A DNA stretch of 64,000 bases, taken from IMG/VR virus record IMGVR_UViG_2609459822_000013, positions 1 to 64,000 of that record, one strand, 5' to 3'. Each line of letters starts with the position of its first letter. Position 1 is the first letter of the stretch. Below are positions 3,988-43,028 of this stretch, piece by piece. Under the pieces are notes generated by a model. It saw nothing but the letters and a program-made list of their open reading frames with translations. It did not search any database and was not told the origin of the DNA. Source of the DNA: a virus (Duplodnaviria; Heunggongvirae; Uroviricota; Caudoviricetes). The translations under genes and the position numbers were made by a program.

Positions 3988-4003
3988 GTTTACAAAATGG
4001 AAT
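3988..4003 (+). repeat. dispersed motif copy GTTTACAAAATGGAAT
   Basis: exact 16-mer; overlaps the last codons of the phosphoesterase gene, just upstream of the helicase RBS. Confidence 0.6.
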
Positions 4004-7776: not shown

Positions 7777-8034
7777 TCATCCCTCCGGCAACATCACTAC
7801 ATAGACATCACTGAATGCATCAAGACGACAAACAAATCCTTTATCCATTAACGCGGCGAAGGCATCATGTACCGTATGAACAGGAAGTTCACACATTGCG
7901 GCTACTTCTTTGCGTGATGCATCATGTACCCGTCCTTTGTTATCTGCCTTTTCAGCCAGAGCCATTAAGACAAGTTTTTGAATCGGGCTGTTAAGTTTTA
8001 CGTTCCATACTTCATTCATCATGTGCATACTCAT
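7777..8034 (-). CDS. early HTH regulator in Cro position (85 aa)
   Basis: divergent from the CI-like gene; start chosen at ATG with AGGAGA RBS; HTH-like segment SRKEVAAMCELPVHTVHDAFAALMDKG. Confidence 0.5.
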   Translation of the reverse strand: MSMHMMNEVWNVKLNSPIQKLVLMALAEKADNKGRVHDASRKEVAAMCELPVHTVHDAFAALMDKGFVCRLDAFSDVYVVMLPEG

Positions 8035-8253
8035 CGTGTTTTCTCCTATGGTTAGAGTGAACGCGCGGGCGGGCATCCCATTAGCATTAGATAGCAGTGA
8101 CTGACCGCTCAACAGATCCCGCCGTTGCGTGATATTTGTTTTTCGCTTCGCAGCGACACCGGATTTTTAAAGAGCTTAAGGTAAGTGCCTTTTTGTGCCT
8201 TCCGTTATCTTTTTCCTTGCGTCTTTGCAAGTATGGCCTTACCTTGTCTGCAA

Positions 8254-8269
8254 GTTTACAAAATGGAAT
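8254..8269 (+). repeat. dispersed motif copy GTTTACAAAATGGAAT (in CI/Cro intergenic region)
   Basis: 16/16 identical to the copy at 3988-4003. Confidence 0.6.
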
Positions 8270-8339
8270 TTTAAGATCAAGGCTTAAAATACACGTTTTG
8301 TGACTTGCATCAAACTTTTTGAGGTTATAGGGTAGCGAC

Positions 8340-8987
8340 ATGAAAACAAAATGGTATGACTTAGCAAAGCAGCTCATGCGGGCGCAGGGCATGAGCCAGG
8401 ATTCACTAGCGGATCGCATGGGGATAACTAAAGGCGGTCTGTCACACTGGCTGAACGGTCGCCGCGAGCCAAATCTTGAAGATATTGCGCGGATTATGCG
8501 AGAGCTTGGTCGTCGGCAGTTCACTGTTACACATGATGGTATGGTCATTGATGATTCTGTTTCTAATACACTTCAGGCCGTGCCGCCGCGTGATTTAGGT
8601 AGTTACCCGGTTATTGACTGGAAGGACACAGTAAACAATATGGATGACGCAAGGCGTTCAGCATTACGACACGTTACGACTAGCGTTATTTGTTCAGATG
8701 ACAGTTACTGGCTGGTTGCCAAAGGTGAATCAATGAACGCGCCGCAGGGGTTGAGCATCCCGGCGGGGACGATGATACTTGTGGACCCGCACGCGCCAGC
8801 TATTGACGGCAAACTGGTTATAGCCCAGCTTGAGGAAGGGCAGATACCGACGTTTAAACAGTTGATTATTGATGGAGGTCAAAGGCTTTTACGTTCGCTC
8901 AATCCGCTGTATCCGCCAATCCCTATGAATCCAGAATCAAAAATTATAGGCGTGGTGGTTGATGCGAAGATCGTAAACCTGCCATAA
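8340..8987 (+). CDS. CI-type phage repressor (HTH + S24 LexA-like peptidase)
   Basis: 215 aa; N-terminal HTH (QDSLADRMGITKGGLSHWLNGRREP); C-terminal S24 motifs (AKGESMNAP...GTMILVDP). Confidence 0.85.
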   Translation: MKTKWYDLAKQLMRAQGMSQDSLADRMGITKGGLSHWLNGRREPNLEDIARIMRELGRRQFTVTHDGMVIDDSVSNTLQAVPPRDLGSYPVIDWKDTVNNMDDARRSALRHVTTSVICSDDSYWLVAKGESMNAPQGLSIPAGTMILVDPHAPAIDGKLVIAQLEEGQIPTFKQLIIDGGQRLLRSLNPLYPPIPMNPESKIIGVVVDAKIVNLP

Positions 8988-8992
8988 ACATG

Positions 8993-9018
8993 AGCCGCCG
9001 GATGGCGGCTTTTCTTTG
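8993..9018 (+). terminator. Rho-independent terminator after repressor gene
   Basis: hairpin AGCCGCCGGATGGCGGCT followed by T-run. Confidence 0.6.
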
Positions 9019-9096
9019 CCTAAAGAACACCAAAACGTAAACAGAAAACGTTACTTATTGTTTAAATATCAATAGCATATAAAATATTTTAAAAAA

Positions 9097-9110
9097 GTAT
9101 ACAAAATGGA
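9097..9110 (+). repeat. dispersed motif copy GTATACAAAATGGA abutting pL-like -35
   Basis: core ACAAAATGGA; immediately upstream of TTGACT. Confidence 0.55.
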
Positions 9111-9139
9111 TTGACTCGATGTTTTACGGGGCGTATATT
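9111..9139 (+). promoter_or_regulatory. candidate sigma70 promoter (pL-like): TTGACT-N17-TATATT
   Basis: near-consensus -35/-10 with 17 bp spacer downstream of repressor terminator and upstream of the nut-like site. Confidence 0.4.
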
Positions 9140-9393
9140 GCGAGTCAAAGGAAGGGCGCAGGTAACAAAAGCAACTTCCTGGCACTTTAAAAATCAGGCT
9201 TAACACCTTGTCAACCGTGGAGTAACTCCCCGATGGGGGACCGAAAGCGGCACTGATAACAAGGCGCATGGGGTGTTTAAAGCGTTACATCCCCCACGAA
9301 ACCGCACGCAAGGCGACGAGTCAGCTTGCTTGGAGTGAGCAAGGTCACGCCGGGAACGGCGATGATTGCGGGATTAGTTGCAAGATGTTAAGC

Positions 9394-9431
9394 CGCTCAT
9401 TAACAATCTGGTCAGCCGCTGGAAGTGCGGC
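9394..9431 (+). promoter_or_regulatory. nutL-like site: boxA-like CGCTCATTAACAA plus boxB-like hairpin GCCGC-TGGAAGT-GCGGC
   Basis: boxA closely resembles the recalled boxA consensus; 5 bp stem hairpin 8 nt downstream; ~55 nt upstream of the N-like gene. Confidence 0.5.
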
Positions 9432-9487
9432 AATTAACGAAGATGATTTTTTATTAAGTATCATCAAGGATATACGGAGATCAGATT

Positions 9488-9778
9488 ATGAGCGTTACAA
9501 TTATATATGGTAAATGTGATAGCAAAATGAATGCCAGGGAACGCAGAAGGATAAAAAGAGAAAACGAAAGAAAATCATCACCTGCAATCAATAAAACAGA
9601 CAATGTGGATAAAGCTATTCGATTTGCAAACGAGGAAAGATGCAAACCGAATGGCATTAAAGAGCATCGCAAAGGTGCGGCAAAATGGTATGCGGAAAAC
9701 GAAAGCGGCAATTACTACCACGCAACACAACCGCGTAGTCTAGGGGAAAAACCCCTGGATAAAGTACGCTACAGATAA
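9488..9778 (+). CDS. N-type transcription antiterminator (P22 gp24-like)
   Basis: 96 aa; N-terminus MSVTIIYGKCDSKMNARERRRIKRENERK resembles recalled P22 gene 24 N-terminus and carries an arginine-rich motif; ACGGAG RBS. Confidence 0.65.
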   Translation: MSVTIIYGKCDSKMNARERRRIKRENERKSSPAINKTDNVDKAIRFANEERCKPNGIKEHRKGAAKWYAENESGNYYHATQPRSLGEKPLDKVRYR

Positions 9779-9927
9779 TACAAAATGTAAACTTTCAAAG
9801 GTGACATTATGGTTGTTCAGGCGCTTCAATTCAAACTGGCAGTAGCGGAAATGCTTCACGATGCCGAAATGTGGAGCGCCGCGAATAAAGCCTTATACAT
9901 AGTGTTAACAGCACGGGAGATTAAATA

Positions 9928-10569
9928 GTGAAAACAGAGTTACATAAAAAGCTATGGGCGATTCAGCAAACGCTGAACGCGCCGAAAAATCAGCGTAATA
10001 ATTTTGGTGGATATAATTACAGGTCGGCGGAGGATATTTTAGAGGCGGTTAAACCACTGCTTCAAAATATCACGCTGACTGTTAGTGATGAAATTGTCCT
10101 GATCGGCAATCGCTATTATGTGAAAGCAACGGCGACGCTAAGCGACGGTGAAGACGTAATAGCGGTAACTGCTTATGCCAGGGAGGAAGAAAGCAAGAAG
10201 GGTATGGACGCCAGCCAGCTAACAGGAGCAACATCAAGTTACGCGCGTAAATATGCTTTGAACGGTTTATTCTGTATAGATGATGCTCGCGATCCTGATA
10301 CTGATGCTTACGCGAAGCAGACAGGCCAGCAGCCGCGACAACAGAAAAACCCACCAAAACAACAACCGCAGCAGAAGAAAGCGCCGCCAAATCCTGATGA
10401 AGTGTTAGCACGTTTCTGTGATGCAGCAGCGAAAGCGCAGGACGCTAACAAGCTGCGTGAAATATTTGGCAAATGCTGGAAATTACTACCGGAAGGATCG
10501 GAGCATCGAATCAAGGCAAAAGATGTTTATGACATCCGGGTAGCAGAGCTTAACGGGGAGATGGGTTAA
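9928..10569 (+). CDS. erf: Erf-family single-strand annealing recombinase
   Basis: 213 aa; ERF signature GGYNYRSAEDILEAVKPLL; GTG start with GGGAGA RBS. Confidence 0.8.
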   Translation: MKTELHKKLWAIQQTLNAPKNQRNNFGGYNYRSAEDILEAVKPLLQNITLTVSDEIVLIGNRYYVKATATLSDGEDVIAVTAYAREEESKKGMDASQLTGATSSYARKYALNGLFCIDDARDPDTDAYAKQTGQQPRQQKNPPKQQPQQKKAPPNPDEVLARFCDAAAKAQDANKLREIFGKCWKLLPEGSEHRIKAKDVYDIRVAELNGEMG

Positions 10570-10988
10570 TGAGTTTAAATTCAATCACGCTGGGCGGGAA
10601 TATCGGTAATGATATGGAGGTTCGCTACACACAAAACGGGAAAGCGATTGGTAGTTTTCCGTTAGCTGTAACGAATGGCTACGGCGATAATAAGCGGACA
10701 ATGTGGGTCACTTGCCTTGTATTTGGTGAGCGTGCGGAAAAATTAGCGCCACATATCCGCAAGGGTGGAAAAATAGTGGTAAACGGTCGCTTGGATGTTC
10801 GGCAATATGACCGGAACGACGGCACGAAGGGAACGGCGGTAGAAGTGGCGGTTAACGAATTCGAATTTATGAACGTTAACCAACAGGGCCAGCAGCAAGG
10901 CCAGCAGCAGAAAGCGCCACCGCCGCAGCAGAATAACAACGGGAATAATCCGCCTCCGATGGACTTCGACGACGATATTCCTTTTTAG
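10569..10988 (+). CDS. ssb: single-stranded DNA-binding protein
   Basis: 139 aa; OB-fold SSB N-terminus, Q/G-rich linker, acidic C-terminal tail DFDDDIPF. Confidence 0.9.
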   Translation: MSLNSITLGGNIGNDMEVRYTQNGKAIGSFPLAVTNGYGDNKRTMWVTCLVFGERAEKLAPHIRKGGKIVVNGRLDVRQYDRNDGTKGTAVEVAVNEFEFMNVNQQGQQQGQQQKAPPPQQNNNGNNPPPMDFDDDIPF

Positions 10989-11064
10989 AATCAATGCGTT
11001 AGCTATGAGTGATTATCTAAAACCGCCACCGCAACCACGAACAAAAGAGCAAGTATTAAAAGAA

Positions 11065-11097
11065 GCCCGCGATCAAATCGATCGCGGGCTTTTTTTA
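11065..11097 (+). terminator. strong Rho-independent terminator downstream of ssb
   Basis: 10 bp perfect stem GCCCGCGATC/GATCGCGGGC followed by T7 run. Confidence 0.65.
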
Positions 11098-11295
11098 TGC
11101 GGCACGGCAGCGGATCGAATGGCGAAAAGATTTAGTGACCTGTACGCGAAGCAAATCTGGTTTGACAACTGGCGAGCGAGTTCTTACCCGCTACAGAAAA
11201 CTGATGATATGCAGTGGCCTGAATATGTTGATCCACGAATGCGCAAATATCGCGGGCGTATGGGCAAGGTTATTAACGATTAATGAGGTATTACC

Positions 11296-11547
11296 ATGAC
11301 AGCTACAACATTAAGCGAAAATAACGGGCGCGGTTTTCAGGGGACTGCGGAAACCTCAGACGATGGTGATGTATTTGTCGAATTCGGTGGCGGTAACTAT
11401 GAATTCGAAACGTCGGCGGGCTGGCACGATAAATGGCCTTTCCCGACGCGCAAGGAATTAAGCGATCGAAAAACATTTGGCGAAGATGCCGAACGCCTGG
11501 CGAATAATAAATGGATGGATAAATTTATTGCGGAGGCTGAAAAATGA
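11296..11547 (+). CDS. hypothetical protein
   Basis: 83 aa ORF with RBS. Confidence 0.45.
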   Translation: MTATTLSENNGRGFQGTAETSDDGDVFVEFGGGNYEFETSAGWHDKWPFPTRKELSDRKTFGEDAERLANNKWMDKFIAEAEK

Positions 11548-11657
11548 GTTTTGCAAAAATTGCAGCATTGGCTGCGGCGGTGGCGATCGCGGCGCTATAT
11601 CTTAGCTTATCGCTTTATATTACGGTGGCGATCATCAAGCTGATTACAACTATGTGA
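11544..11657 (+). CDS. small membrane peptide (37 aa)
   Basis: ATGA overlap with upstream stop; Ala/Ile-rich single TM helix (MSFAKIAALAAAVAIAALYLSLSLYITVAIIKLITTM). Confidence 0.35.
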   Translation: MSFAKIAALAAAVAIAALYLSLSLYITVAIIKLITTM

Positions 11658-11664
11658 GGCAATC

Positions 11665-11787
11665 ATGAGAGTCAGTAAGGATATTGTGACGGTCGCGTTT
11701 TGCGTTATTTGTTTCCTGTTTGCGGTTGTGCTTTGTGGCGCACTTGCGGCAGTGATTAGCTTTATTGGTAAGGGGGTGATGTTATGA
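11665..11787 (+). CDS. small membrane peptide (40 aa)
   Basis: MRVSKDIVTVAFCVICFLFAVVLCGALAAVISFIGKGVML; stop overlaps next start (ATGA). Confidence 0.35.
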   Translation: MRVSKDIVTVAFCVICFLFAVVLCGALAAVISFIGKGVML

Positions 11788-12056
11788 CTCTGTGGGATGC
11801 AAAAGAAGGTGATCTCGTTGTCTTGCCAGCATATCGTAGTGATCTCGGGCTGGTCGTACTGAATAAAACATGTAGCGACATTCAACGCCCGATCCTGGTT
11901 AGATACTTAGACGGCACGATGATCGAACCGCGTTTCTTCGACAAAGTTGAACTGAAGGCCCGCAATGTTCGCGTTAAGCCTTTCCGGGCTTATGTTGAAA
12001 ATCACTGGCGTAAATTGTTCGCCGGACTGAATGGGATGTTCGGCGTATGGCTATAA
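11784..12056 (+). CDS. hypothetical protein
   Basis: 90 aa ORF, coupled in operon. Confidence 0.45.
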   Translation: MTLWDAKEGDLVVLPAYRSDLGLVVLNKTCSDIQRPILVRYLDGTMIEPRFFDKVELKARNVRVKPFRAYVENHWRKLFAGLNGMFGVWL

Positions 12057-12238
12057 AATTAGTGAAGGTTAAACACCTGAAAGGCGGTGAAAGATTAATG
12101 TCATGGTGGGGACATGAATTTATTGCTACTGCCTTTCATTTCGGCCTAGGTGGTCAAGTAACAATATTTGATGAAGATTACGACGAGGTGGGGCAATGGC
12201 ATCTTGAGCAATATGTCGAGGTGTTAAATGAAAATTAA
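12047..12238 (+). CDS. hypothetical protein
   Basis: 63 aa ORF, overlapping start/stop. Confidence 0.4.
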   Translation: MAIKLVKVKHLKGGERLMSWWGHEFIATAFHFGLGGQVTIFDEDYDEVGQWHLEQYVEVLNEN

Positions 12239-12560
12239 ATTCCACAAAGCGTATGACGCTAACACAAACAAGCTATCACTATTTATCGAATTCGAACGCC
12301 GGATCGTGGTAGCGCCTTGGTCGCGGCGCTTTAATGACGCCGCCGGATGTAGACAATTCGCGGTCGATATGCTGTTACGCGGCTGCGGCCTTATGCGTCC
12401 GCTATCTGATTTAAAACGAATGATGCCGGGATCGTTCGGTCAGATTGATGAAATAGAAATAAGCCCGGAAGAACTGAAACGTGAGCGTGATTTATTCCTT
12501 TCAAGCGAAGGAAACCCGTTTAATTCAGAAACTGAAATGAAATGGCATCATCCACTATAA
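12228..12560 (+). CDS. hypothetical protein
   Basis: 110 aa ORF. Confidence 0.45.
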   Translation: MKIKFHKAYDANTNKLSLFIEFERRIVVAPWSRRFNDAAGCRQFAVDMLLRGCGLMRPLSDLKRMMPGSFGQIDEIEISPEELKRERDLFLSSEGNPFNSETEMKWHHPL

Positions 12561-12571
12561 GGGTAAATATT

Positions 12572-13192
12572 ATGAACAATATCAAAACGGCTTATTCACT
12601 CGGCAGCGAAGGCATGTTAATTACTCGCTACACAGAGGACGCGAGCTTTCACGAAGTGGTAACTAAGGATTATCACGAAGTTTTAAAAGATATGGAAGCA
12701 GGAGTGTATGACAGTGACTTAAATCTGGCGCTACAGATTGTTGATATTATGATGGATGCATCAATCCGCGATTACGTGTCTTTAAGCATGGAAGAAAAAA
12801 CATCGGTAGCGCGTTATGTGTTCTGCCTCACTTTCGTAAGACGCATGGAGGAGGAATTCGGACGCGCACCAGTGCCGGAAGATGTTGATCCGCTCGCGTT
12901 CGGAAGTGCTGTTATTTTCCCGTTGAACAAGGATCGGCTTGGCAGTGTTTCACTGCATTCTATGCGCGCCCTGATGAAAAAGGTCTTTGAGGTTAAGATG
13001 TTGCAGAAATTTATTGAGGAAGGACACGAAGAAGTGAACGTTAAGGCGTTTATTCCGGTGCTTTACGGAAATTTTGTTGGCGATGATATGCGCGCTAATG
13101 AATTAGGCGTACAGGCGGCTATAGCTACGCTTAACGAAGCAATGAAAAGTGCACAGCCTATTCATGAACAGGAAAAACGTGTACTGCATTAA
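12572..13192 (+). CDS. hypothetical protein (206 aa)
   Basis: start at ATG after TAAGGG RBS. Confidence 0.5.
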   Translation: MNNIKTAYSLGSEGMLITRYTEDASFHEVVTKDYHEVLKDMEAGVYDSDLNLALQIVDIMMDASIRDYVSLSMEEKTSVARYVFCLTFVRRMEEEFGRAPVPEDVDPLAFGSAVIFPLNKDRLGSVSLHSMRALMKKVFEVKMLQKFIEEGHEEVNVKAFIPVLYGNFVGDDMRANELGVQAAIATLNEAMKSAQPIHEQEKRVLH

Positions 13193-13291
13193 CAGCGTGA
13201 TTGCGATCACATAAATATACATTTTGTATTGTGATTGCATATCCGTTTTGTAAGCCGAAATCAAAAGGTTTACGGTGCGGAGGAAAACAAG

Positions 13292-13510
13292 ATGGCCCGC
13301 GAATTAATGCTTTATTGTGTTGAGGGTGGCGTAGGTAGTAATGCCTATGTCGCCGGGAAAGGCTATCCAGCCGATGAAGTGCTTTCTAATATGCACTTCC
13401 GGGAAAATGAAAGCCGGGTGTCTGTGTGGAAACGGTGCATTGATGGTATTGAGGTTGTAAGTATCGAACGGTATTTAGGCACGTTTGATTACGGTGTTAT
13501 TGAGGCTTAA
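13292..13510 (+). CDS. hypothetical protein (72 aa)
   Basis: GGAGGA RBS before ATG. Confidence 0.45.
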   Translation: MARELMLYCVEGGVGSNAYVAGKGYPADEVLSNMHFRENESRVSVWKRCIDGIEVVSIERYLGTFDYGVIEA

Positions 13511-13608
13511 TTATGGACGACACATTGTTTTATATGTGCTGTTGCTGGGGTTTTATTGCCTTATGTCTGTTTATCAGGTGGTTTATTGAATACCATATGA
13601 GGTGAGGC

Positions 13609-13803
13609 ATGGAACAGAAAACTGATTATAGAATACCTGATGGCCTAAAATTAGTTGGCATTGGTTTCGGGTGTAGATTTGTATCTGACGCAAAAGGAGC
13701 GATTTATTTAATACGTCTTATTGATGGCGTTCAACATATAAGGAGATTAGGAATTTACATCAAAGCATTCAGAAGAGGTTATTTAAAAACTCATGAAATT
13801 TAA
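13609..13803 (+). CDS. hypothetical protein
   Basis: 64 aa ORF in AT-rich stretch. Confidence 0.35.
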   Translation: MEQKTDYRIPDGLKLVGIGFGCRFVSDAKGAIYLIRLIDGVQHIRRLGIYIKAFRRGYLKTHEI

Positions 13804-13996
13804 ACATTACATGGAATGGAAAATTCCAGAAGCAGCAACAAAGGCAGCGCCAGGAAATGTTTCTGGCGTTTATTTTTATATGGATGGCAAATGGTATTTC
13901 GGCAGCAGGCCGGATCGCTACTATCAAGAAATATGCAAGCCTCACGTATGGGATATTAAAGAGCGCGTGAAAGGCGGGGTAATTGAGGACGTTTAA
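13793..13996 (+). CDS. hypothetical protein
   Basis: 67 aa ORF. Confidence 0.35.
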   Translation: MKFKHYMEWKIPEAATKAAPGNVSGVYFYMDGKWYFGSRPDRYYQEICKPHVWDIKERVKGGVIEDV

Positions 13997-14029
13997 AATG
14001 ATGCGTGCAATTATTGACTTCATTATTGG

Positions 14030-14224
14030 ATGGTTATTTTGTTCTTTTTCGTATTCTCATGTATAGCTACGGTTTTTATTGGAATTTTATGTGGTGTGTC
14101 GTTTGTTACATGGGAGCCACCAGAAATTCCATCACCTGATGATGCGCTTTATATATTAAGGGTTATTATTGCTGTTAGTGTATTTGTTGGGTTCTTTTTC
14201 GCTGATTCTACTGATGATTTATAA
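14030..14224 (+). CDS. small membrane protein (2 TM)
   Basis: 64 aa, two hydrophobic segments. Confidence 0.35.
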   Translation: MVILFFFVFSCIATVFIGILCGVSFVTWEPPEIPSPDDALYILRVIIAVSVFVGFFFADSTDDL

Positions 14225-14225
14225 A

Positions 14226-14459
14226 ATGGCTTTATTTAACCTGTCAGAGCCGCAATTTAACGCCGTAAAGACTGCCGCCCGCGCCGCGCTTTCGGCCTGC
14301 AAAGCGGAAGTAGAAAAGAACGGCTACAGCGATAAAGCCACGCGGCTGATATTAGATAAGCATTATCGCAAGGTCGCCCCGCTAATCAGTATTGAGCGTT
14401 TTGTGTGGTTGGTGGGGTATCTGAATAACCGCTGGGGAACAGATCAGGATTATTTCTAA
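14226..14459 (+). CDS. hypothetical protein (77 aa)
   Basis: ORF with internal ATG start after stop of upstream gene. Confidence 0.4.
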   Translation: MALFNLSEPQFNAVKTAARAALSACKAEVEKNGYSDKATRLILDKHYRKVAPLISIERFVWLVGYLNNRWGTDQDYF

Positions 14460-14468
14460 GGGGGCGTA

Positions 14469-15008
14469 ATGAAAAATGATTACGGCGGCAGCCATACGCC
14501 GAAAGAAATAAAGGACTTATGGCAAACGCCAAAACCCGTTTTTAGAGGAATGGATCGAGAATTCGAGTTCGTCGCGGATGTGGCGGCAAACAAGGCAAAC
14601 GCATTAATACCGCGATATATAACCGAAGAAATGGACACGCTCCATTATCCGTGGGGAGCGGTGGCGATGCCTGGTGAGTATGTCTGGATGAATCCGCCAT
14701 ATTCTAATCCGGGGCCATTCGTTGATAAAGCGGCGCTTGAACACAGCCGAAATCATATCGGATGCGTAATGTTATTGCCCGCTGACATTTCTGTTAGCTG
14801 GTTTATGAACGGCGTGGAGACGGCAAACGAATGCCGATTAATCACGCGCGGGCGGCTGGCGTTTATCAATGCTGCAACAGGGAAACCAGTAAGCGGGAAC
14901 AATAAGGGGAGCTTGTTCCTGATCTGGCATCCACGATGCAGACATGAATGTATTTTCACGCAGATAACACGTAAAGAGCTATATGCAAGAGGTGCAGAAA
15001 ATGAATAA
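14469..15008 (+). CDS. phage N6-adenine DNA methyltransferase
   Basis: 179 aa; catalytic NPPY motif (VWMNPPYSNPG). Confidence 0.7.
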   Translation: MKNDYGGSHTPKEIKDLWQTPKPVFRGMDREFEFVADVAANKANALIPRYITEEMDTLHYPWGAVAMPGEYVWMNPPYSNPGPFVDKAALEHSRNHIGCVMLLPADISVSWFMNGVETANECRLITRGRLAFINAATGKPVSGNNKGSLFLIWHPRCRHECIFTQITRKELYARGAENE

Positions 15009-15321
15009 AGCGGCTGAATTGCTGAGACTTGCGGCTGAAACTATCGAGGCAAGAGGGGAGCAAAACGGATACGATCGAAAAGAAGAAAAATCAGCGCCAA
15101 AAATAGCGGCTATTTTCAACGCTAAGATGAATGCGAATTTAACCCCACTTGATGTATGGGATCTAATGATTTGCCTCAAGGAAGCGCGTTTAGGGGCTAT
15201 TCTCGCTAATGGAACTGATCCGCTCGACACTCTTATAGACCTTATTGCTTATAACGCGCTTAAGGCCGAACAGATATTAGCGTATCGGGAGGAAGAGCTA
15301 AATGAAGATGGTGGCAATTGA
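15001..15321 (+). CDS. hypothetical protein (106 aa)
   Basis: overlaps methyltransferase stop. Confidence 0.45.
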   Translation: MNKAAELLRLAAETIEARGEQNGYDRKEEKSAPKIAAIFNAKMNANLTPLDVWDLMICLKEARLGAILANGTDPLDTLIDLIAYNALKAEQILAYREEELNEDGGN

Positions 15322-15805
15322 CAGGTTATTAGCCTGCGTTTATGTCGCCGTTTTCGTTATCATCAATCTTATTGTTAACCACTGTGGCACGTGGGTAATT
15401 CCGATCACCACGGTAGCCGCCGTGTGTGTCAATATGATGATTCGTGATTTTCTGTTATATGACGGCGGCCTTAAATGGTCGGCTACAACATGCGCCGCCG
15501 CTGGCGCAATCACGGTGCTGATAAATTACGACGCCGGAATGGTGGCGATCGCGTCATTCGTCGCGGTTGTTTCCGGTGCGCTTATTTCTGGCGGCGTTTA
15601 CCGGGTTTTACCTGGTGATTTCGATTCTAAACGCTGGCCTGCAAATATAGCGTCCGCCATTGGCGATGCGTTAATTTTCCCAACGCTATCGTTTATGGCA
15701 TTCATGCCGGAAATATCAGCTATGCAATTCATCTCAAAAATGGCGGCGGTAACGGTGATCACTATCATCATGCGCCGCTACTTTACGTTCGAGGGTAGGA
15801 AATGA
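15302..15805 (+). CDS. integral membrane protein (167 aa, ~5 TM)
   Basis: multiple hydrophobic helices. Confidence 0.5.
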   Translation: MKMVAIDRLLACVYVAVFVIINLIVNHCGTWVIPITTVAAVCVNMMIRDFLLYDGGLKWSATTCAAAGAITVLINYDAGMVAIASFVAVVSGALISGGVYRVLPGDFDSKRWPANIASAIGDALIFPTLSFMAFMPEISAMQFISKMAAVTVITIIMRRYFTFEGRK

Positions 15806-16565
15806 GTGGGCTTAGAAATTGGGTGGTGTGGTCGCTGTACGACGGCAGCGGATACGCCGTTAAAGATTGGGCCGACGCTGGTTATAAATGCTATTGCTTC
15901 AACTATGATGGCGCTAATCACGGCGATTATGAAGGCGTCAAAATCATTCATCCGAACATTGAGTATATCAACGTATGGATTGACAGCCATTTCCTGGTAA
16001 TGTTCTCCCCTGAATTGTCTGTTTATCCAGATCCTGACATTATCCTGGGCTTTCCTCCGTGCGACGATCTTGCGGTGTCCGGCGCTCGCTGGTTTGCTGA
16101 TAAGCGGAAAAAGATCCTTACTTCCAGCAGAAGGCGGCATACAACGCAAAACTGGTAGAAACGCTTGCTGATATGTACCACGTCCCGTGGATGGTGGAAA
16201 ATCCGGTAGGTGCGCTGTCAACGTTATGGCGCAAACCTGATTTTATCTTCAACCCGTGCGCTTACGGTGGCTACCTGCCTGAAGACGACAAACACCCTGC
16301 TTTCCCTGAATACATAGCTGCCCGCGACGCATACACGAAGAAAACTTGTATCTGGTGCGGGAATGGATTTAAGCAGCCGCTATTCCGGTCTGTACCTATG
16401 CCGGATGAATGGGAAGACAGCAAACAGCACGCGAAGTTAGGAGGAAAGTCGAAACGCACTAAGATGATCCGCTCACTAACGCCGCGCGGCTTTGCCCGTG
16501 CTGTATTCTTGGCTAACGACCGGGCCATCACTCGTACTACGCTTAACCGCATTTTACCGGACTAA
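15802..16565 (+). CDS. putative DNA C5-cytosine methyltransferase, frame interrupted (-1 shift required at 16107-16113)
   Basis: ORF 15802-16158 carries a motif IV-like GFPPCDDLAVSGA; ORF 16173-16565 (open from 16104 in the -1 frame) carries ENV-like MVENP and RSLTPRGFARAV; the two frames join across G_AAA_AAG. Confidence 0.45.
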
Positions 16566-16566
16566 A

Positions 16567-16582
16567 GTTTACAAAATGGCAT
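16567..16582 (+). repeat. dispersed motif copy GTTTACAAAATGGCAT
   Basis: 13-mer GTTTACAAAATGG identical to 3988/8254 copies. Confidence 0.6.
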
Positions 16583-16587
16583 CATTG

Positions 16588-16603
16588 TGTGATGCGGATC
16601 ACA
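16588..16603 (+). promoter_or_regulatory. CRP-consensus-like palindrome TGTGA-TGCGGA-TCACA
   Basis: perfect match to both CRP half-sites with 6 bp spacer; contains GATC. Confidence 0.4.
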
Positions 16604-16634
16604 TAATGGCGCTTTTTGTCTTGTTTGGGGGTAT

Positions 16635-16647
16635 CCATTTTGTATAC
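16635..16647 (-). repeat. dispersed motif copy (reverse) TATACAAAATGGA
   Basis: inverted partner of the 16567 copy, 55 bp away. Confidence 0.55.
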
Positions 16648-16724
16648 TTCAAGCAAACAAAATGCTCTTTAAAAATCCGGCAGCGCTGAAATGCGTAGAA
16701 ATCACCTGAAAAGGAGAGAGCATT

Positions 16725-16901
16725 ATGTCTTTTGATGATTACCAATGGCATGACGACTATGAACGAGAAAGCGTCATGCGTGCAATGTGCAATGTATGCA
16801 GCACGAAGAAAGGAGGCTGTAACGAGTGCAACGAATGCTTAGAACATTGGCTAAGGGCCGGACACGCCGAAAGGCTGAACGAAACAGAGAATCAAAAATA
16901 A
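16725..16901 (+). CDS. small zinc-ribbon protein (58 aa, CxxC...CxxC)
   Basis: AAGGAGAG RBS; four Cys in two CxxC pairs. Confidence 0.45.
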   Translation: MSFDDYQWHDDYERESVMRAMCNVCSTKKGGCNECNECLEHWLRAGHAERLNETENQK

Positions 16902-16915
16902 TCGGGGTGGTTTTT

Positions 16916-17521
16916 ATGCAAAACCCTAAAAAACCCATAAGACGCCGTTGCAAATGCTGCGGCGTTTTTTTTGAGCCTAAATATCACAATCAAACGTGGT
17001 GCAGCGATGAATGTCTGGAAGAACTGAAGTTTGACCAGCTATGCCGCGACCGTGAGAAGGCTATGAAGGCTATGGAGCGGAAGAAACGCCGTGATAGCCA
17101 GAGGGAAGAACGCAACCGGAAGCGTAAACAGTTAAATCCGCGTAGTTATTGGATCAAACAAGTTCAAAATGTATTTAACGCCTATATTCGCGAACGTGAC
17201 GCGCGCTTGCCGTGTATATCTTGCGGGACTTACTACGGTGAGCAATGCGGGTGGGATGCAGGTCATTACAGGACGGTAGCCGCCGCCGGACACCTTCGCT
17301 TCAACGAGGATAATTGCCATAAGCAATGTAGGCACTGCAACCAGACACTAGACGGCAACATCGGAGGGTATCGCCCGGCGCTGATTCGAAAAATTGGCCT
17401 CGCCAGGGTGGTAGCTCTGGAGAACAACAATGATACGCATAAATGGACGATTGCAGAATGTAAGGAGCTAATAAACATCTATCAGGCTAAATTGGACGCC
17501 TTAAGGAGAAAGGCAGCATGA
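16916..17521 (+). CDS. ninG: NinG (Rap) recombination protein
   Basis: 201 aa from internal ATG; Cys/His-rich NinG-like sequence (CKCCG...CISCGTYYG...HYRTVAAAGHLRFNEDNCHKQCRHCN). Confidence 0.75.
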   Translation: MQNPKKPIRRRCKCCGVFFEPKYHNQTWCSDECLEELKFDQLCRDREKAMKAMERKKRRDSQREERNRKRKQLNPRSYWIKQVQNVFNAYIRERDARLPCISCGTYYGEQCGWDAGHYRTVAAAGHLRFNEDNCHKQCRHCNQTLDGNIGGYRPALIRKIGLARVVALENNNDTHKWTIAECKELINIYQAKLDALRRKAA

Positions 17522-17925
17522 ATGAATATTCTTTTAGCCTGCCTTACCCGCCATCGAATAATCGCTATTACCGACATTCGCGCGGTTTTCACTATATCAG
17601 CAAGGTGGGGAAGGAATACAGGGAACAAGTAAGAGACATCATCGAGCTATTAAATTTAAATATTAACCTACCTTGCCGACTGGCAATTGCCATTTACGCC
17701 GCGCCGCCGGATAACCGGATCAGAGATCTGGATAATATCCCTAAATGCCTTTTTGACAGCCTTACTTATGCCGGATTCTGGAGGGATGACGGGCAAATTG
17801 ACTCAATAAAAATTGTCCGCTGCCGGAAGGTAAAAGGCGGACGCTTGTTTATTAAGATCCGCGAACGCGGCGACCTACTACCGGATATTGACGAATACGC
17901 GACTAATATGTGGGGTGAGCAATGA
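17518..17925 (+). CDS. rusA: RusA Holliday junction resolvase
   Basis: 135 aa; LPYPPSNNRYYRHSRG and catalytic-region pattern typical of RusA. Confidence 0.8.
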   Translation: MNEYSFSLPYPPSNNRYYRHSRGFHYISKVGKEYREQVRDIIELLNLNINLPCRLAIAIYAAPPDNRIRDLDNIPKCLFDSLTYAGFWRDDGQIDSIKIVRCRKVKGGRLFIKIRERGDLLPDIDEYATNMWGEQ

Positions 17926-18104
17926 AAAACGAAGTTAAAGATCTGCAAATAGATATTCAGCGCGACGAGCGTGATTTAGAGACGGTCCGACAAATCCAAG
18001 CTTTCCACATGCGCGAATTACTTGCGCTGAAAGAGTTCGAAAGAAAGCTGGTGCAATCCATTTCTGATCGTAAACGGCTGGCGGCACGTTATGAGGGCAA
18101 ATAA
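17922..18104 (+). CDS. hypothetical coiled-coil protein
   Basis: 60 aa ORF, overlapping starts. Confidence 0.4.
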   Translation: MKNEVKDLQIDIQRDERDLETVRQIQAFHMRELLALKEFERKLVQSISDRKRLAARYEGK

Positions 18105-19035: not shown

Positions 19036-19369
19036 TATCGGGTGGTTATATTGCGAAAACTGCGACGACGACGGCATGGTTGTTAAGACTGAAAAAGGTT
19101 GCGGCTTCTTTTTGTATCAAGGCGATAAGTTTGTTTGTCCGCGATGCGGTGGTCATGGTGAGATAGAAATTATTGAAGATAGTGCTACAGCACCAGAGCC
19201 GGAGCGCATTGTTCTTGACGAAAAAATAAAAATTCATCCTGATTTATTGCAGCAAATTATCGATCACATATCGGCAGCAGCAATCTATGCAGATAATAAT
19301 TATCATCGTGAAATGAACGTAAAACGTGTTCTTGAGCAGTATTTCGAGGGTGGTGATAATGAAGCCTAA
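19022..19369 (+). CDS. hypothetical zinc-ribbon protein
   Basis: CENCDDDG...CPRCGGHG. Confidence 0.4.
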   Translation: MKIINIGWLYCENCDDDGMVVKTEKGCGFFLYQGDKFVCPRCGGHGEIEIIEDSATAPEPERIVLDEKIKIHPDLLQQIIDHISAAAIYADNNYHREMNVKRVLEQYFEGGDNEA

Positions 19370-19628
19370 ATTAAAAGAACATGAATTCAGGGATCTTGTA
19401 AACGGAATAACTGATAAGTCCAGGACTTATTCAAATACACAACAATTAAGGGCTGTGATAGTTACTGAATTAAGGAAATATATAGACCTAAGAGATCCGG
19501 TCGATGTTATGACGATGGACGAGGCCATCAAGCGCCGTTCGGCTGAATGGTCAGTGAGTAATACCGGATTAACCGGATATATTGAAGGCTATAACGACTG
19601 TTTACAGGATCATAGCGATGGCAAGTAA
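19359..19628 (+). CDS. hypothetical protein
   Basis: ORF with overlapping start. Confidence 0.35.
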   Translation: MKPKLKEHEFRDLVNGITDKSRTYSNTQQLRAVIVTELRKYIDLRDPVDVMTMDEAIKRRSAEWSVSNTGLTGYIEGYNDCLQDHSDGK

Positions 19629-19926
19629 AGACCTGCATTTGAATCTGAAAGGGGAATACTTCCACGCCATCCGGGCGGGAAAGAAGGTGGAAGAATACAG
19701 GCTTTACAATGACTATTGGCGTAAACGCCTGGAGGGGCGGGAATATGAACGCCTGATCATTAAGCTGGGGTATCCAGCCAGCCACGAAGCGCACCGGATC
19801 ATAAACCTGCCTTATTTCGGGTACGAAGTAAAAACTATCACGCATCCATTATTCGGCCCTGATCCTGTTAAGGTATTCGCAATTAAATGTGATGTGAATT
19901 GGATGTTAAGGTGGGGTGAGCAATGA
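19618..19926 (+). CDS. hypothetical protein
   Basis: 102 aa ORF. Confidence 0.4.
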   Translation: MASKDLHLNLKGEYFHAIRAGKKVEEYRLYNDYWRKRLEGREYERLIIKLGYPASHEAHRIINLPYFGYEVKTITHPLFGPDPVKVFAIKCDVNWMLRWGEQ

Positions 19927-20138
19927 AAAAAGCTGGCCTGTCAATCAGTCGTGTGTTGTGCGGCGACGAAAGCGAGATCCGCATAGAAATTAAATTTAGC
20001 ACGGGTAAAGAGATAATTCTCTATACGACACCTGAAAACCTGACGCTGGCGCTTACTGGTAAATCTGAAACGCCGTGCGACGTCCGGTTGCGCAATATTG
20101 AGATTAAGGAAATAGGAAGGGTGAGAAATGAAAAGTAA
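19923..20138 (+). CDS. hypothetical protein
   Basis: 71 aa ORF. Confidence 0.35.
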   Translation: MKKAGLSISRVLCGDESEIRIEIKFSTGKEIILYTTPENLTLALTGKSETPCDVRLRNIEIKEIGRVRNEK

Positions 20139-23470: not shown

Positions 23471-23665
23471 ACGAGATCGAAGACGGTATCTATTTGCACA
23501 TGTTATTTAATATCGCCTATTTGGTTAAAGGTGATAAGGTGATGACACAAAGCGCTGGCAATAAATATTGGGAATCAAGCGGAATGGATCGGTGGCATAT
23601 GCAGATGTTGCTTGATAATGGCCTGATATACAGGAAGCAGTAAAGCCGTATTTGTGGGGGGCAGT

Positions 23666-23893
23666 ATGGAAGAAATGATTTTGCTGTCATTAATATGGCA
23701 TCGGTTCGGGAGTGAAAAAGGTTACTCGCCTGCTTGCTGGCTGGATAGTAAAAGTGGGAAGGGGGATCAAAACGAATGCGAATTTAGAAGGGAGTGGCGA
23801 GGCGGTAAGGAAGTGCAAGGATATTTTGCACCGAAACACGTCGCCGCCAAATACAAAGAATGGCTTGTTCGTTTGCTTGGCCCTTATCGTTAA
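23666..23893 (+). CDS. hypothetical protein flanked by 18 bp direct repeats
   Basis: 75 aa ORF; TAAAGCCGTATTTGTGGG at 23643-23660 and 23893-23910. Confidence 0.4.
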   Translation: MEEMILLSLIWHRFGSEKGYSPACWLDSKSGKGDQNECEFRREWRGGKEVQGYFAPKHVAAKYKEWLVRLLGPYR

Positions 23894-23958
23894 AGCCGTA
23901 TTTGTGGGTCGAAAACAAACAGATTAAAATATTACCTAACAATGCGAAACTGTAACTA

Positions 23959-23982
23959 CCCGGCCCCGTGCCGGGTTTTTGC
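23959..23982 (+). terminator. tR-prime-like intrinsic terminator upstream of lysis genes
   Basis: hairpin CCCGGC-CCCGT-GCCGGG followed by TTTTT. Confidence 0.55.
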
Positions 23983-24000
23983 TTTGTTGGAGGTAAATCT

Positions 24001-40403: not shown

Positions 40404-40422
40404 CCCCGGCACAATGCCGGGG
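40404..40422. terminator. bidirectional terminator hairpin
   Basis: CCCCGGCACAATGCCGGGG with A-run upstream. Confidence 0.5.
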
Positions 40423-40436
40423 CTATCTTTATTCAA

Positions 40437-41448: not shown

Positions 41449-41531
41449 TAGCTATAATCATTGTACTGAAGATCTCATTTTCGCGTAGAAGCGCGTAAAG
41501 ATATATACAAAATGTAACTTATGGGGGTTTT

Positions 41532-42436: not shown

Positions 42437-42784
42437 TTATTTATCGAATGCTGAAAGGTTATCGATACAGAAATCTTTCGCAGCTTTTTCGTATTCGCGT
42501 TTTGCTTCTGGATCGTCAGCCGGGAAACCTTTTGCGTGTATTTCACCAGGGCAAGACTGATCCATAGAGTCTGCAAAATTAACATTGAAGTTAACATTAA
42601 TATCTTTCGGGTTCATATCTTCCACCTCATCAACTATCTGTACCGGATTAGCAGTATATTTCACTGGATGGCCTAAACTACATTCAAGAATCCTGCCTTC
42701 TTCCAGGGCTACTTCTTCGCTATCAAATAATCCGAAACACTCCTTGCTACCACTTAACCACACATCAAGACTGTATTTTTTCAT
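42437..42784 (-). CDS. moron: hypothetical protein (115 aa)
   Basis: GAGG RBS; middle gene of 3-gene reverse operon. Confidence 0.45.
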   Translation of the reverse strand: MKKYSLDVWLSGSKECFGLFDSEEVALEEGRILECSLGHPVKYTANPVQIVDEVEDMNPKDINVNFNVNFADSMDQSCPGEIHAKGFPADDPEAKREYEKAAKDFCIDNLSAFDK

Positions 42785-42953: not shown

Positions 42954-42967
42954 AACGCACCTCCGCG

Positions 42968-42980: not shown

Positions 42981-43028
42981 TTCCCCTTCGTTTGAGTAAA
43001 ATATACATATTGTAAAACAACGATCAAT

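Follow-up and report, generated by a model that had tools for sequence, protein, structure and literature searches.

The window, the 64,000-nucleotide stretch of DNA analyzed here, is judged from its sequence to be an E. coli prophage of the mEpimmI group, made up of relatives of mEp021; mEp021-group phages share 85–93% identity with the region described below. The mEpimmI group was newly introduced in 2025 (Negrete-Mendez 2025, PMC11893012) for coliphages of the gut that are prevalent and share one immunity type. The 16566–16724 spacer lies, on the plus strand, between a putative DNA cytosine methyltransferase gene (15802–16565; named after the mEp021 annotation) and a ninF-like zinc-ribbon gene (16725–16901), with coordinates from the list of open reading frames. 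The methyltransferase gene consists of two reading frames in the window (15802–16158 and 16173–16565) and forms one CDS in E. coli N25. The ninF-like gene, identified from annotations, is the first gene downstream, and is followed in order by ninG (16916), rusA (17518) and Q (18104). Further upstream is a Dam-family N6-adenine methyltransferase gene (14469–15008; PF05869, E = 1.9e-51), as the original prediction had recognized. The rep gene (8340–8987, plus strand) encodes a lambda CI-like repressor with an HTH_3 domain (PF01381) and a Peptidase_S24 domain (PF00717), which matches lambda repressor 3bdn with an E-value of 1.4e-20 and is proposed here as the protein that binds the motif of the spacer. 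Searches against Pfam gave no matches for the 85-residue "MarR-like" product of the first gene in the PL operon, for Gp17 or for the ninF-like protein.

The spacer contains a forward motif copy, TTTACAAAATGG, at 16568–16579 and a reverse copy, CCATTTTGTATAC, at 16635–16647, which, with small corrections in coordinates, form the inverted pair described originally. From its sequence, the motif is best read as a 13-bp pseudo-palindromic operator, (A/T)(T/C)ACA-NNN-TG(G/T)nn, with ATACA-N3-TGTAT as the ideal form. The first putative operator, O-a (TTACA-AAA-TGGCA, 16569–16581, plus strand), scores 21.6 bits with a matrix of the motif and is centered at 16575, about −80 from the predicted start of a candidate promoter, PR2. 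It is followed by a palindrome (16582–16609) with 12-bp arms, TCATTGTGTGAT-GCGG-ATCACATAATGG, which corresponds to the predicted terminator t4 (TERM_4) of mEp021. The palindrome encloses the TGTGA-TGCGGA-TCACA sequence at 16588–16603, which is, as originally reported, a perfect match to the CRP consensus and the sole perfect TGTGA-N6-TCACA in the 64 kb. This core may also be viewed as the junction of two operator-like sites placed back to back, each of which supplies its inner, TCACA-type half-site. The one on the right, O-b (TCACA-TAA-TGGCG, 16599–16611, plus strand), scores 13.8 bits and is centered at 16605 (about −50), 30 bp from O-a and 34 bp from O-c. The one on the left, O-b' (TCACA-CAA-TGATG, 16580–16592, minus strand), was read from the sequence as a possible weak operator and scores below 9 bits with the AAA-centered matrix. 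O-a shares 2 bp with the putative O-b', which makes simultaneous occupation of the two unlikely. The last operator, O-c (ATCCA-TTT-TGTAT on the plus strand, 16633–16645, minus-strand orientation), is centered at 16639 (−16) and scores 21.0 bits.

The last three bases of O-c are also the first three of the candidate PR2 −10 hexamer, TATACT (16643–16648), which matches the consensus at five of six positions and from which a start near 16655 is predicted. The candidate −35 hexamer, TTGTTT (16621–16626), is located 16 bp upstream of it. PR2 was not called by the consensus scan since its −35 hexamer has only three of six consensus bases; overall it matches at 8 of 12 positions, as does PL. PR2 is placed 8 nt upstream of the nutR2 boxA and 1.45 kb upstream of Q. 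The nutR2 site (16663–16696, plus strand) consists of boxA, TGCTCTTTAAAAA (16663–16675), and a boxB hairpin, GCGC-TGAAAT-GCGT (16683–16696); it is 78% complementary over 37 nt to the nutL region (8139–8175). For mEp021, nutR2 and the predicted t4 are reported in Valencia-Toxqui 2023 and Negrete-Mendez 2025. In the description of the mEpimmI group, nutR2 is placed downstream of the methyltransferase gene and is called the most nutL-like site, and the predicted t4 is drawn at the palindrome locus of mEp021 (PMC11893012). Neither that paper nor the GenBank record MH706966 annotates operators or a promoter at the mEp021 nutR2/t4 locus. The 12-bp arms of the palindrome (terminator-like on both strands), the published nutR2 in the same spacer and the presence of the motif on PL and PR had all been missed in the original prediction.

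Comparison of 31–35 sequence variants of the sites in relatives showed that the palindromes are conserved and not unique to this phage. In the 35 variants of the spacer, the three operators, the nut site, the −10 hexamer TATACT and the TTGT within the −35 form an invariant footprint separated by hypervariable stretches, with TTGT standing as an island between two of them. O-a is nearly invariant across 31–35 variants, with TTTACATAATGG, TTTACGGAATGG and TTCACAAAATGG as the observed changes, TCACATAATGGCGC of O-b does not vary and GTATCCATTTTGTATACTTCAA of O-c is conserved. In the core at 16588, TCACA is present in 31/31 variants, the left half is TGTGA in 13 and CGTGA in 18, and the central 4–5 nt vary freely. 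This T/C change in the core is the A/G change at position 5 of O-b', a degeneracy also found in other operators.

The motif is dispersed over the window. ACAAAATGG occurs 14 times compared to 1.24 expected (about 11-fold), and none of 100 shuffles reached 14 copies. Its density is 2.6 per 10 kb in 88 mEpimmI loci versus 0.17 per 10 kb in 37 phage loci that have nothing but tail gene L in common with them. The window carries about 20 strong sites in at least nine intergenic regions, and nearly all strong copies are intergenic. Their orientation relative to genes is mixed, several have no −35 hexamer nearby, and one copy (3989–4003) is located 20 nt from a start codon. Perfect dyad symmetry, ATACA-N3-TGTAT, is seen at 13217–13229 and in other phages, and in most window copies one of the halves reads TGG or CCA. 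A wider 17-bp symmetric form, GTAT-N-CA-N3-TG-N-ATAC, was considered as the general site and holds only at 16631–16647. Sites for IHF, Fis, LexA, TyrR, CpxR, OmpR, LacI-family proteins, AraC, sigma-32, sigma-S and sigma-54, compared by eye through their consensus sequences, have the wrong spacings or key bases. The matS/MatP and SlmA sites resemble GTGA..TCAC and have centers of 3 and 2 nt, respectively, instead of 6. A function at the RNA level was also rejected, on the basis of the mixed orientation with respect to transcription, a hairpin without covariation and an Rfam search of 7900–17200 with no relevant match.

The second composite element (42965–43072) is located upstream of L. The original prediction of a near-identical 20-mer at this locus is confirmed by exact copies of GTGAYGCRGATCACAWAATG at 16589–16608 and 43049–43068; a further copy at 50400–50419 has two mismatches, and its core (50399) reads TGTAA-N6-TTACA. 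The block contains operators at 42966–42978 (minus strand), 43003–43015 (palindromic, ATACATATTGTAA), 43027–43039 (minus strand) and 43059–43071 (plus strand), as well as a CRP-like core, CGTGA-N6-TCACA (43048–43063). A candidate leftward promoter, PmorL (TTGATC-16-TATATT, 43027–43000), was identified by the promoter scan, and the operon driven from this block encodes a KilAC antirepressor. Conservation of the block holds across 33 variants, including those with a different neighboring moron gene, and the motif is present at every junction where a reverse-strand moron breaks into the tail operon. The original prediction was right to describe a composite cis-regulatory element with further copies at the accessory promoters of moron and tail genes. 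The third cluster (13196–13254) begins with the related inverted repeat of the original prediction, CGTGATTGCGATCACA, which does exist at 13196–13211, slightly to the left of the 13205–13245 given previously. Two motif copies follow (13216–13254): an ideal operator, ATACATTTTGTAT (13217–13229), and an operator at 13241–13253 fused to TAAGCC. The 15-mer AATACAAAATGTATA from this cluster is identical to the top matches in loci L134, L135 and L136.

The early promoters of the phage carry the same sites. In the PL and rep-promoter region (8253–8312), an operator at 8256–8268 is fused to the −10 hexamer of leftward PL (TTGATC-16-TAAACT), and a TCACA-type operator (8293–8305) is accompanied by a CRP-like core with 9/10 matches (8299–8314). 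PR (TTGACT-17-TATATT, 9111–9139, plus strand; 10/12 in the promoter scan, conserved) has an operator, O2 (9099–9111), that abuts the −35 hexamer and another, O1 (TTACG-GGG-CGTAT, 9124–9136), that is fused to the −10, with 25 bp between the two centers, such that the region spans 9099–9139. A fixed geometry is shared by PR, PL and the candidate promoters PR2, PmorL and P13, in which the −35 hexamer is followed by 6–7 nt and then by a 13-bp operator whose last 3 nt start the −10. The second operator is located 24–25 bp (PR, PmorL and P13) or 34–37 bp (PR2 and PL) upstream.

The matrix was trained only on window copies; its enrichment in the window is therefore circular, and the other phages provide the only independent tests. 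In seven such backgrounds the best matches fall beside rep homologues, at about 250-fold over background. For five of these, with rep homologues of 44–55% identity, 12 matches of at least 12 bits were found in 2.25 kb (about 5.3 per kb), whereas 576 kb of DNA from control phages has 0.021 per kb. The Citrobacter background has three matches within 140 bp of rep, the Enterobacter background has four near its rep homologue, and a fifth locus has three beside its homologue; a metagenomic lambdoid phage has matches in the cro-rep spacer and a cluster at +1 kb. In a Tatumella lambda-like prophage, three sites were seen by eye in the cro-cI spacer, two of which the matrix also detects, with scores of 12.1 and 9.3 bits; just upstream of N are two strong matches of 18.0 and 14.8 bits. 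Sites are similarly placed by the rep homologues of Salmonella phage ST64T and of Klebsiella phage ST11-VIM1phi8.3. Classical cro-cI and OL/PL-N arrangements are represented among these matches, and in the Tatumella, Klebsiella and ST64T phages PL likewise has an operator fused to its −10. A scan of species-representative genome contigs for relatives of Rep found none.

In the distant L129 lineage, Rep is 55% identical to that of the window, with an identical recognition helix (TKGGLSHWLNG); the Cro-like gene is different, yet the motif is kept at PR, at PL and in the methyltransferase-ninF spacer. The 30-bp spacing equivalent to O-a/O-b is retained, and that equivalent to O-b/O-c is within 1 bp (42 versus 43 bp between motif starts). 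This operator array has no nut site, which indicates that the pairing of promoter and nut site is not universal.

Site enrichment, conservation, association with the rep family and a fixed operator-promoter geometry were all computed here; the binding of Rep to the sites, the activity of PR2 and the cooperative binding of neighboring operators are inferred. We consider it probable that the motif copies and the "CRP palindrome" serve as operators for Rep, the CI-like repressor that the phage itself encodes, and are arranged on an internal promoter, PR2, in front of nutR2. The 13-bp operators would be bound by Rep and, in all probability, by its Cro-like partner as well. Three of them, all strong (16575, 16605 and 16639), would be placed on and upstream of the candidate sigma-70 promoter PR2 (TTGTTT-16-TATACT, 16621–16648). 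O-c shares its last three bases with the −10 hexamer, and bound Rep would therefore block RNA polymerase; Rep on the promoter-proximal operator is expected to act likewise at PL and PR. Transcription from PR2 would start some 8 nt ahead of the nutR2 boxA; the transcripts could then be modified by the N-like Gp17 and extend through ninF, ninG and rusA to Q, such that each of the three nut sites in this phage group would have its own repressor-controlled promoter. In the perfect CRP palindrome, two operator-like sites would stand back to back and contribute their inner TCACA half-sites. This operator system may also control the divergent promoters located between L and the moron operon that carries the antirepressor, as well as at least seven further intergenic regions.

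Several observations are at odds with the assignment to Rep. Half-symmetry, as seen in most window copies, is not usual in the sites of dimeric proteins of the CI type. At 43048 and 13196, the left arm CGTGA is strongly conserved and has no good outward partner half-site. Moreover, the morons would be silent in lysogens if Rep represses them, which is unexpected for lysogenic-conversion genes. If the operator reading is correct, a change from CCATTTTGTA to CCAGGGTGTA would abolish the protection of the 13-bp cores by Rep. Searches of the literature text for the operator sequences returned only unrelated primer matches, and none of the papers listed contained the full 13-mer palindromes ATACATTTTGTAT and ATACAAAATGTAT.

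An alternative that we regard as possible, though doubtful, is that the palindrome is an intrinsic, perhaps bidirectional, terminator that ends transcription of the methyltransferase operon unless the polymerase is modified by Gp17, with the flanking motifs serving as A- and U-tracts. TERM_4 is annotated in mEp021 (MH706966) with a score of 79, the palindrome was terminator-like on both strands in our scan, and the RNA folds with −22.6 kcal/mol (z = −4.7). However, the 12-pair stem contains only three G-C pairs, and the five U residues of the window become TTTAC, TATTC or CATTC in many relatives. Among the 31 variants, the basal A/U pairs are broken in 8–23 and the stem pair 23–38 is C.A in 18. 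Covariation is no better than in shuffles, with one pair changed on both sides, which equals the shuffle mean, at the low power afforded by 92% identity. The 20-mer upstream of L lacks a T-run and folds weakly (z = −1.9), and a terminator leaves unexplained the approximately 20 dispersed motif copies and their link to rep homologues. A weak terminator function could exist alongside the operator function.

The original prediction considered regulation by cAMP-CRP or by methylation, which is probably not correct; what is conserved agrees with operators for a CI-like repressor encoded by the phage itself. For CRP, the proposal is that the host protein binds TGTGATGCGGATCACA and the cores at 43048, 13196 and 8299, alone or together with Rep, and confers class I-like activation and dependence on the carbon source. 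Class I CRP-dependent promoters, such as lac, have the site at −61.5. Here, a TGTGA-N6-TCACA core with 9–10 of 10 matches is similarly found about 60 bp upstream of four predicted starts, with centers close to that of lac (about −59.5 for PR2 and P13, −60.5 for PL and −62.5 or −61.5 for PmorL); the starts are only predicted, and −59.5 is 2 bp off the optimal phase. The core at 16588 is a unique 10/10 match (0.02 expected in the window), and four of the five window cores with at least 9/10 fall within the operator clusters (about 1 kb), with 2.1 expected over the 64 kb. GTGA and TCACA are invariant at 16588 (31/31) and nearly so at 43048 (32/33), the center varies as it does in CRP sites, TTTGA-N6-TCACA is found at the same position in the L129 lineage, and the CGTGA arms at 43048 and 13196 are left over by the operator model. 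In contrast to known class I promoters, critical bases are not maintained in all paralogous and orthologous copies. The core is perfect in just 13/31 variants and 9/10 in the other 18, and the paralogous palindrome at 13196–13211 loses the CRP-contacted G:C pairs in about 9 of 26 variants, where TCACA becomes TTACA or TCATA and GTGA becomes GTAA; the pairs are also lost in the 50399 copy, while operator-type half-sites are kept in each case. On either side, conservation reaches at least 8 bp past a 22-bp CRP site, A-rich 3' flanks (TAA, AAA) replace the TTT of the CRP consensus, and the right half of the core is always the left half of a full 13-bp phage operator. A role for CRP is unlikely. 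We assign the same low likelihood to joint control by Rep and host CRP of PL, PR2-nutR2, the antirepressor moron promoter and the promoter near 13263, with the CRP site located between Rep operators about 60 bp upstream. If this were so, the strength of lytic and antirepressor transcription after Rep inactivation would depend on cAMP, and a lambda CI-family repressor would be the hub of a genome-wide, nutrient-sensing network of about 20 operators.

A Dam-sensitive switch, in which methylation of GATC within the palindromes by the host or phage enzyme alters the binding of a regulator, is very unlikely. The phage encodes a Dam-family enzyme, and GATC is present in all three elements of the window (16597–16600, 43057–43060 and 13205–13208), as first noted, and is kept upstream of L in 31/33 variants. 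At 16597, however, it is retained in only 23 of 31 variants and is replaced by CGTCAC, TGTCAC or GGTCAC in the other 8, and several 13196 variants have GATTAC instead. Most motif copies have no GATC, and its G is outside the 13-bp operator. It is more improbable still that the motif is a mere promoter element (an extended −10 or spacer signature for the host polymerase or a phage factor) or a recombination boundary flanking morons: the CCATTTTG-TAWACT orientation includes a −10-like hexamer and the reverse-strand moron junctions in the tail operon all carry the motif, but copies occur in both orientations and several lack a −35, at PR and PmorL the motif is upstream of the −35 in the opposite orientation, the TG is offset by one base from its place in an extended −10, and the site family tracks rep homologues in phages without such morons.

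The arrangement assigned here to Rep resembles OR/OL of lambda in several respects. The repressor is a CI homologue with HTH and S24 domains, the operators overlap the −10 or abut the −35 of divergent early promoters, the nut sites are just downstream of the repressed promoters, and the operator pairs 24–25 bp apart have the distance that supports cooperative CI binding in lambda. In contrast to lambda, the operator is 13 bp (ATACA-N3-TGTAT family) instead of 17 bp and mostly half-symmetric, rep is co-directional with the PR operon with PR downstream of it, about 20 strong sites are spread over at least nine intergenic regions instead of two operator regions, and the mEpimmI-type prophage has a third promoter and nut-site pair. 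Another parallel is the c2-type immunity of the P22-like Salmonella phages L and ST64T; the ST64T repressor is 44% identical to Rep. At OL/PL of ST64T, two AGTACATTTTGTATT sites separated by 25 bp are fused in the same manner to the −35 (TTGACG) and −10, and boxA and boxB follow. ST64T differs in virion and genome type, and within the 5.6 kb examined its operators are found only at the classical OR/OL. We know of no published operator definition for phages L and ST64T, and none was found in the searchable literature. The P1 C1 operators and the gp71 stoperators of mycobacteriophage L5 are short, largely asymmetric sites with many genome-wide copies at accessory promoters, some of which are overlapping inverted pairs that form palindromes. 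The sites described here are likewise dispersed and short, with some inverted pairs that form palindromes. Unlike in those systems, the repressor here belongs to the CI/LexA family with an S24 domain and, unlike stoperators, the sites have no orientation bias and are located within promoters instead of inside transcribed operons.

Immunity in the mEpimmI group has an experimental basis in Rep021, which confers immunity and may recognise different operators, the sole statement on operators in that work (PMC11893012). The operators and early promoters of the group are left undefined there and in the GenBank record, and an operator sequence for Rep is proposed here and placed on PL, PR and three further candidate promoters. 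Repressor operators that overlap promoters are a textbook mechanism; the new part is the putative operator of a newly described coliphage group. It offers a simple explanation for the third nut site, with nutR2 having its own repressor-controlled promoter 1.45 kb before Q. The matches beside rep homologues show, at the level of sequence, that one putative operator family is shared by the CI homologues of lambdoid and P22-like phages from Salmonella, Klebsiella, Citrobacter, Enterobacter and Tatumella. The distribution of the sites also suggests that the antirepressor-containing moron operon and other tail-region inserts belong to the immunity regulon.

The region is 85–93% identical to phages mEp021, mEp010, mEp013, mEp044, mEp515, mEp554 and MagusPhagus, and matches a prophage of E. 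coli N25 at 100% identity; these identities place the window among the prophages of the mEpimmI group (PMC11893012). In this group, a third N-utilisation site, nutR2, was placed 3' of the cytosine methyltransferase gene, with a predicted terminator, t4, drawn at the same locus (PMC11893012). Neither operators nor promoters are annotated in the mEp021 GenBank record or in PMC11893012. The element in the spacer between the methyltransferase gene and ninF is most likely a cluster of putative CI-type operators on an unannotated candidate internal promoter (PR2) adjoining nutR2. The methyltransferase-like gene upstream consists of two ORFs in different frames (15802–16158 and 16173–16565), which probably reflects a frameshift or sequencing error, since it is a single CDS in E. 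coli N25 and mEp021.

The sequence features listed in the original prediction were all located. TGTGA-TGCGGA-TCACA (16588–16603) is the sole perfect TGTGA-N6-TCACA palindrome across the window (0.02 expected), and is flanked by a forward motif copy on its 5' side (TTTACAAAATGG, 16568–16579) and an inverted copy on its 3' side (CCATTTTGTATAC, 16635–16647). The 20-mer GTGAYGCRGATCACAWAATG recurs exactly at 16589–16608 and 43049–43068, and with two mismatches at 50400–50419; a third palindrome (CGTGATTGCGATCACA) is located at 13196–13211 and a Dam-family methyltransferase gene at 14469–15008. The description of the spacer as a composite element stands, but boxA (TGCTCTTTAAAAA, 16663–16675) and the boxB hairpin (16683–16696) of nutR2 in the same spacer had been overlooked. 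Over 37 nt, the boxA/boxB stretch shows 78% complementarity to the nutL region (8139–8175). The 9-mer ACAAAATGG has 14 copies in the window versus 1.24 expected, a count reached by no shuffle, and the putative operator network comprises about 20 sites in at least nine intergenic regions.

Alignment of 35 distinct spacer versions from IMG/VR relatives revealed invariant blocks with sharp edges, separated by hypervariable stretches. The first block, TTTACAAAATGGCGTCATTG-Y-GTGAT, is followed by 4–5 free bases, the second, TCACATAATGGCGC, by a variable stretch, the third, (C)TTGT(T), by six free bases, and the fourth, GTATCCATTTTGTATACTTCAA, by the fifth, boxA and boxB. With the invariant TTGT island positioned 16 bp 5' of TATACT, TTGTTT-16-TATACT (16621–16648) would look like a sigma-70 promoter, our candidate PR2, with a predicted start at about 16655, 8 nt 5' of boxA. 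The block upstream of tail gene L is conserved in 33 versions, including those with an entirely different neighbouring moron gene. The prediction of a conserved, repeated regulatory composite is borne out.

Motif copies are present at the immunity promoters as well. PR (TTGACT-17-TATATT, 9111–9139), located 3' of the repressor gene rep and 5' of nutR1 and gp17, is an excellent promoter in the promoter scan, with 10/12 consensus matches. One motif copy (TATACAAAATGGA) abuts its -35 hexamer; fused to its -10 hexamer is a related site that reads TTACG-GGG-CGTAT here and TCACA-GGG-CGTAT in relatives, with a centre-to-centre distance of 25 bp between the two. Between terminator t1 and PR, a conserved CCAAAACGTAAAC (9030–9042) looks like the motif with an inverted A/T core. 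At the leftward PL (TTGAYC-16-TAAACT), CCATTnTGTAAAC spans the spacer and -10 hexamer. Five promoters were aligned: PR, PL, PR2, PmorL (leftward, for the morons; TTGATC-16-TATATT, 43027–43000) and a weaker candidate at 13229–13256. In all five, 6–7 nt separate the -35 hexamer from a 13-bp site that overlaps the -10 hexamer by three bases, the end of the site forming the start of the hexamer. The block upstream of L contains four or five putative operators across overlapping divergent promoters, one of which leads to an operon with a KilAC antirepressor. This antirepressor is encoded on the reverse strand in the moron operon (42437–42951) that separates tail genes M and L, and appears to be under direct immunity control, since PmorL (43000–43027) shares the double-operator layout of PR.

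The motif is most likely the putative operator of the CI subfamily to which Rep belongs. Rep (8340–8987) is homologous to lambda CI and contains HTH and S24 domains, and immunity conferred by its mEp021 counterpart, Rep021, has been shown experimentally (PMC11893012). A 15-column matrix trained on 18 window copies was used to scan loci with rep homologues of 44–55% identity in unrelated phage backgrounds, and the best matches adjoin rep. In a Citrobacter prophage whose cro and rep diverge, three matches lie within 140 bp of rep; an Enterobacter contig has four matches and a fifth locus three. In a metagenomic lambdoid phage, the cro-rep spacer holds one match and a cluster about 1 kb 3' of rep another three; a fourth site in this downstream cluster and the other two cro-rep sites were recognized by eye. 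In a Tatumella lambda-like prophage, three sites are visible by eye in the cro-cI spacer, of which the matrix found two (12.1 and 9.3 bits); a further two matches, both strong, lie immediately 5' of the N gene. Pooled over the five loci, matches of at least 12 bits number 12 in 2.25 kb, whereas control phage DNA (576 kb) has 0.021 per kb. Salmonella phage ST64T (phage L-type c2) and Klebsiella phage ST11-VIM1phi8.3 display the same pattern, with an operator fused to the -35 and -10 hexamers as in the window; in ST64T, a P22-type nutL follows 3' of the operator-fused promoter. Across these phages the site forms a clean palindrome of 13 bp, ATAC(A/G)-N3-(T/C)GTAT; the window motif is the same site, but one half contains TGG. 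An ideal palindrome is present at 13217–13229; the best matches in three other phages consist of the same 15-mer. Motif density is 0.17 per 10 kb in phages sharing only tail gene L versus 2.6 per 10 kb in mEpimmI loci. A good match (16 bits) at 8343–8357, within the first rep codons (ATG AAA ACA AAA TGG), may be a coincidence of the MKTKW N-terminus or an autoregulatory site.

In a distant lineage (L129, Logan SRR23253299 contig), Rep is 55% identical with an identical recognition helix (TKGGLSHWLNG), the Cro-like gene is different, and the motif is kept at PR and PL. Its methyltransferase-ninF spacer contains a three-site array with spacings of 30/43 bp, versus 30/42 bp in the window, and a palindrome reading TTTGA-TTTAAA-TCACA. 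Since neither boxA nor boxB was found in this spacer (19300–19455), nutR2 seems to have been added to an operator-promoter module that predates it.

O-a, O-b and O-c, the strong putative operators of the element, have their centres at 16575, 16605 and 16639, respectively, with O-b 34 bp upstream of O-c and O-a another 30 bp upstream. As O-c covers the PR2 spacer and the first three -10 bases, Rep bound there would occlude PR2, which would of necessity be kept silent in the prophage. These spacings, and the 24–25-bp pairs elsewhere, are compatible with cooperative binding of the CI type. Transcripts from PR2 would pick up the N-like protein Gp17 at nutR2 and would extend across ninF, ninG and rusA as far as Q (18104). 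Each of nutL, nutR1 and nutR2 would then have its own repressor-controlled promoter.

The palindrome could also be read as a terminator, as TERM_4 of the mEp021 record falls exactly over it. With a folding energy of -22.6 kcal/mol (z = -4.7), the hairpin is stable, and it is terminator-like in the terminator scan, but its stem has only three G-C pairs, one pair is C.A in 18/31 variants, covariation is at shuffle level and the U-tract has decayed in many relatives. Termination also leaves the motif family unexplained, and the hairpin may act as a weak terminator coexisting with operator function. Elsewhere in the window, G+C-rich CCCCGGC..GCCGGGG hairpins with a T-run (23958–23984, 33864–33890 and 40404–40430) look like canonical intrinsic terminators within the late region. 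A strong bidirectional hairpin with a 13-bp stem 3' of ssb (11063–11091) overlaps a below-threshold Rfam Thr_leader match (11003–11098, 33.5 bits, E = 0.003) and most likely represents a terminator rather than a leader.

Control by CRP, as originally proposed, is improbable. In its favour, neither GTGA nor TCACA varies at 16588 and 43048, and the operator model does not account for the left arm CGTGA conserved at 43048 and 13196. Of the five cores with a score of 9/10 or better, four fall in operator clusters, about 60 bp 5' of predicted transcription starts. However, TGTGA is present at 16588 in only 13/31 variants, the other 18 having CGTGA, a change that equals the A/G degeneracy of operator position 5 elsewhere, and conservation extends well past the CRP footprint. 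At 13196, relatives have TTACA or TCATA for TCACA and GTAA for GTGA, and the copy at 50399 reads TGTAA-N6-TTACA; CRP-contacted bases are therefore dispensable while operator-type half-sites persist. Judged from sequence, the palindrome is instead formed by the inner TCACA-type half-sites of two back-to-back putative operators, TCACA-TAA-TGGCG on the right and the weaker TCACA-CAA-TGATG on the opposite strand. A Dam switch, suggested by the GATC within the palindrome, is unlikely as the organising principle, since GATC is missing in 8/31 variants at this site and from most motif copies.

Several other repeats were observed. A 37-nt repeat (78% identity) containing a GCGTAG..CGCGTAAA hairpin occurs 3' of the terminase gene and in the spacer 5' of tail gene M (28738–28774 and 41473–41509). 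An exact 20-mer (GTGGGGTGAGCAATGAAAAA, 17910–17929 and 19911–19930) and 18-mer (TAAAGCCGTATTTGTGGG, 23641–23658 and 23891–23908) at gene junctions suggest duplicated or recombined small-gene modules. The tail-tip fibre gene (48031–48875) contains six copies of a 108-nt-period repeat (61–90% identity to the reference copy), matching the C-terminal repeats mentioned for the J-like protein (PMC11893012).

The kind of control proposed here is textbook phage immunity. What is new is a putative definition of the operator in the mEpimmI group and for related c2/cI proteins, the proposed pairing of promoters with nut sites, and an immunity regulon that would extend into the tail region.
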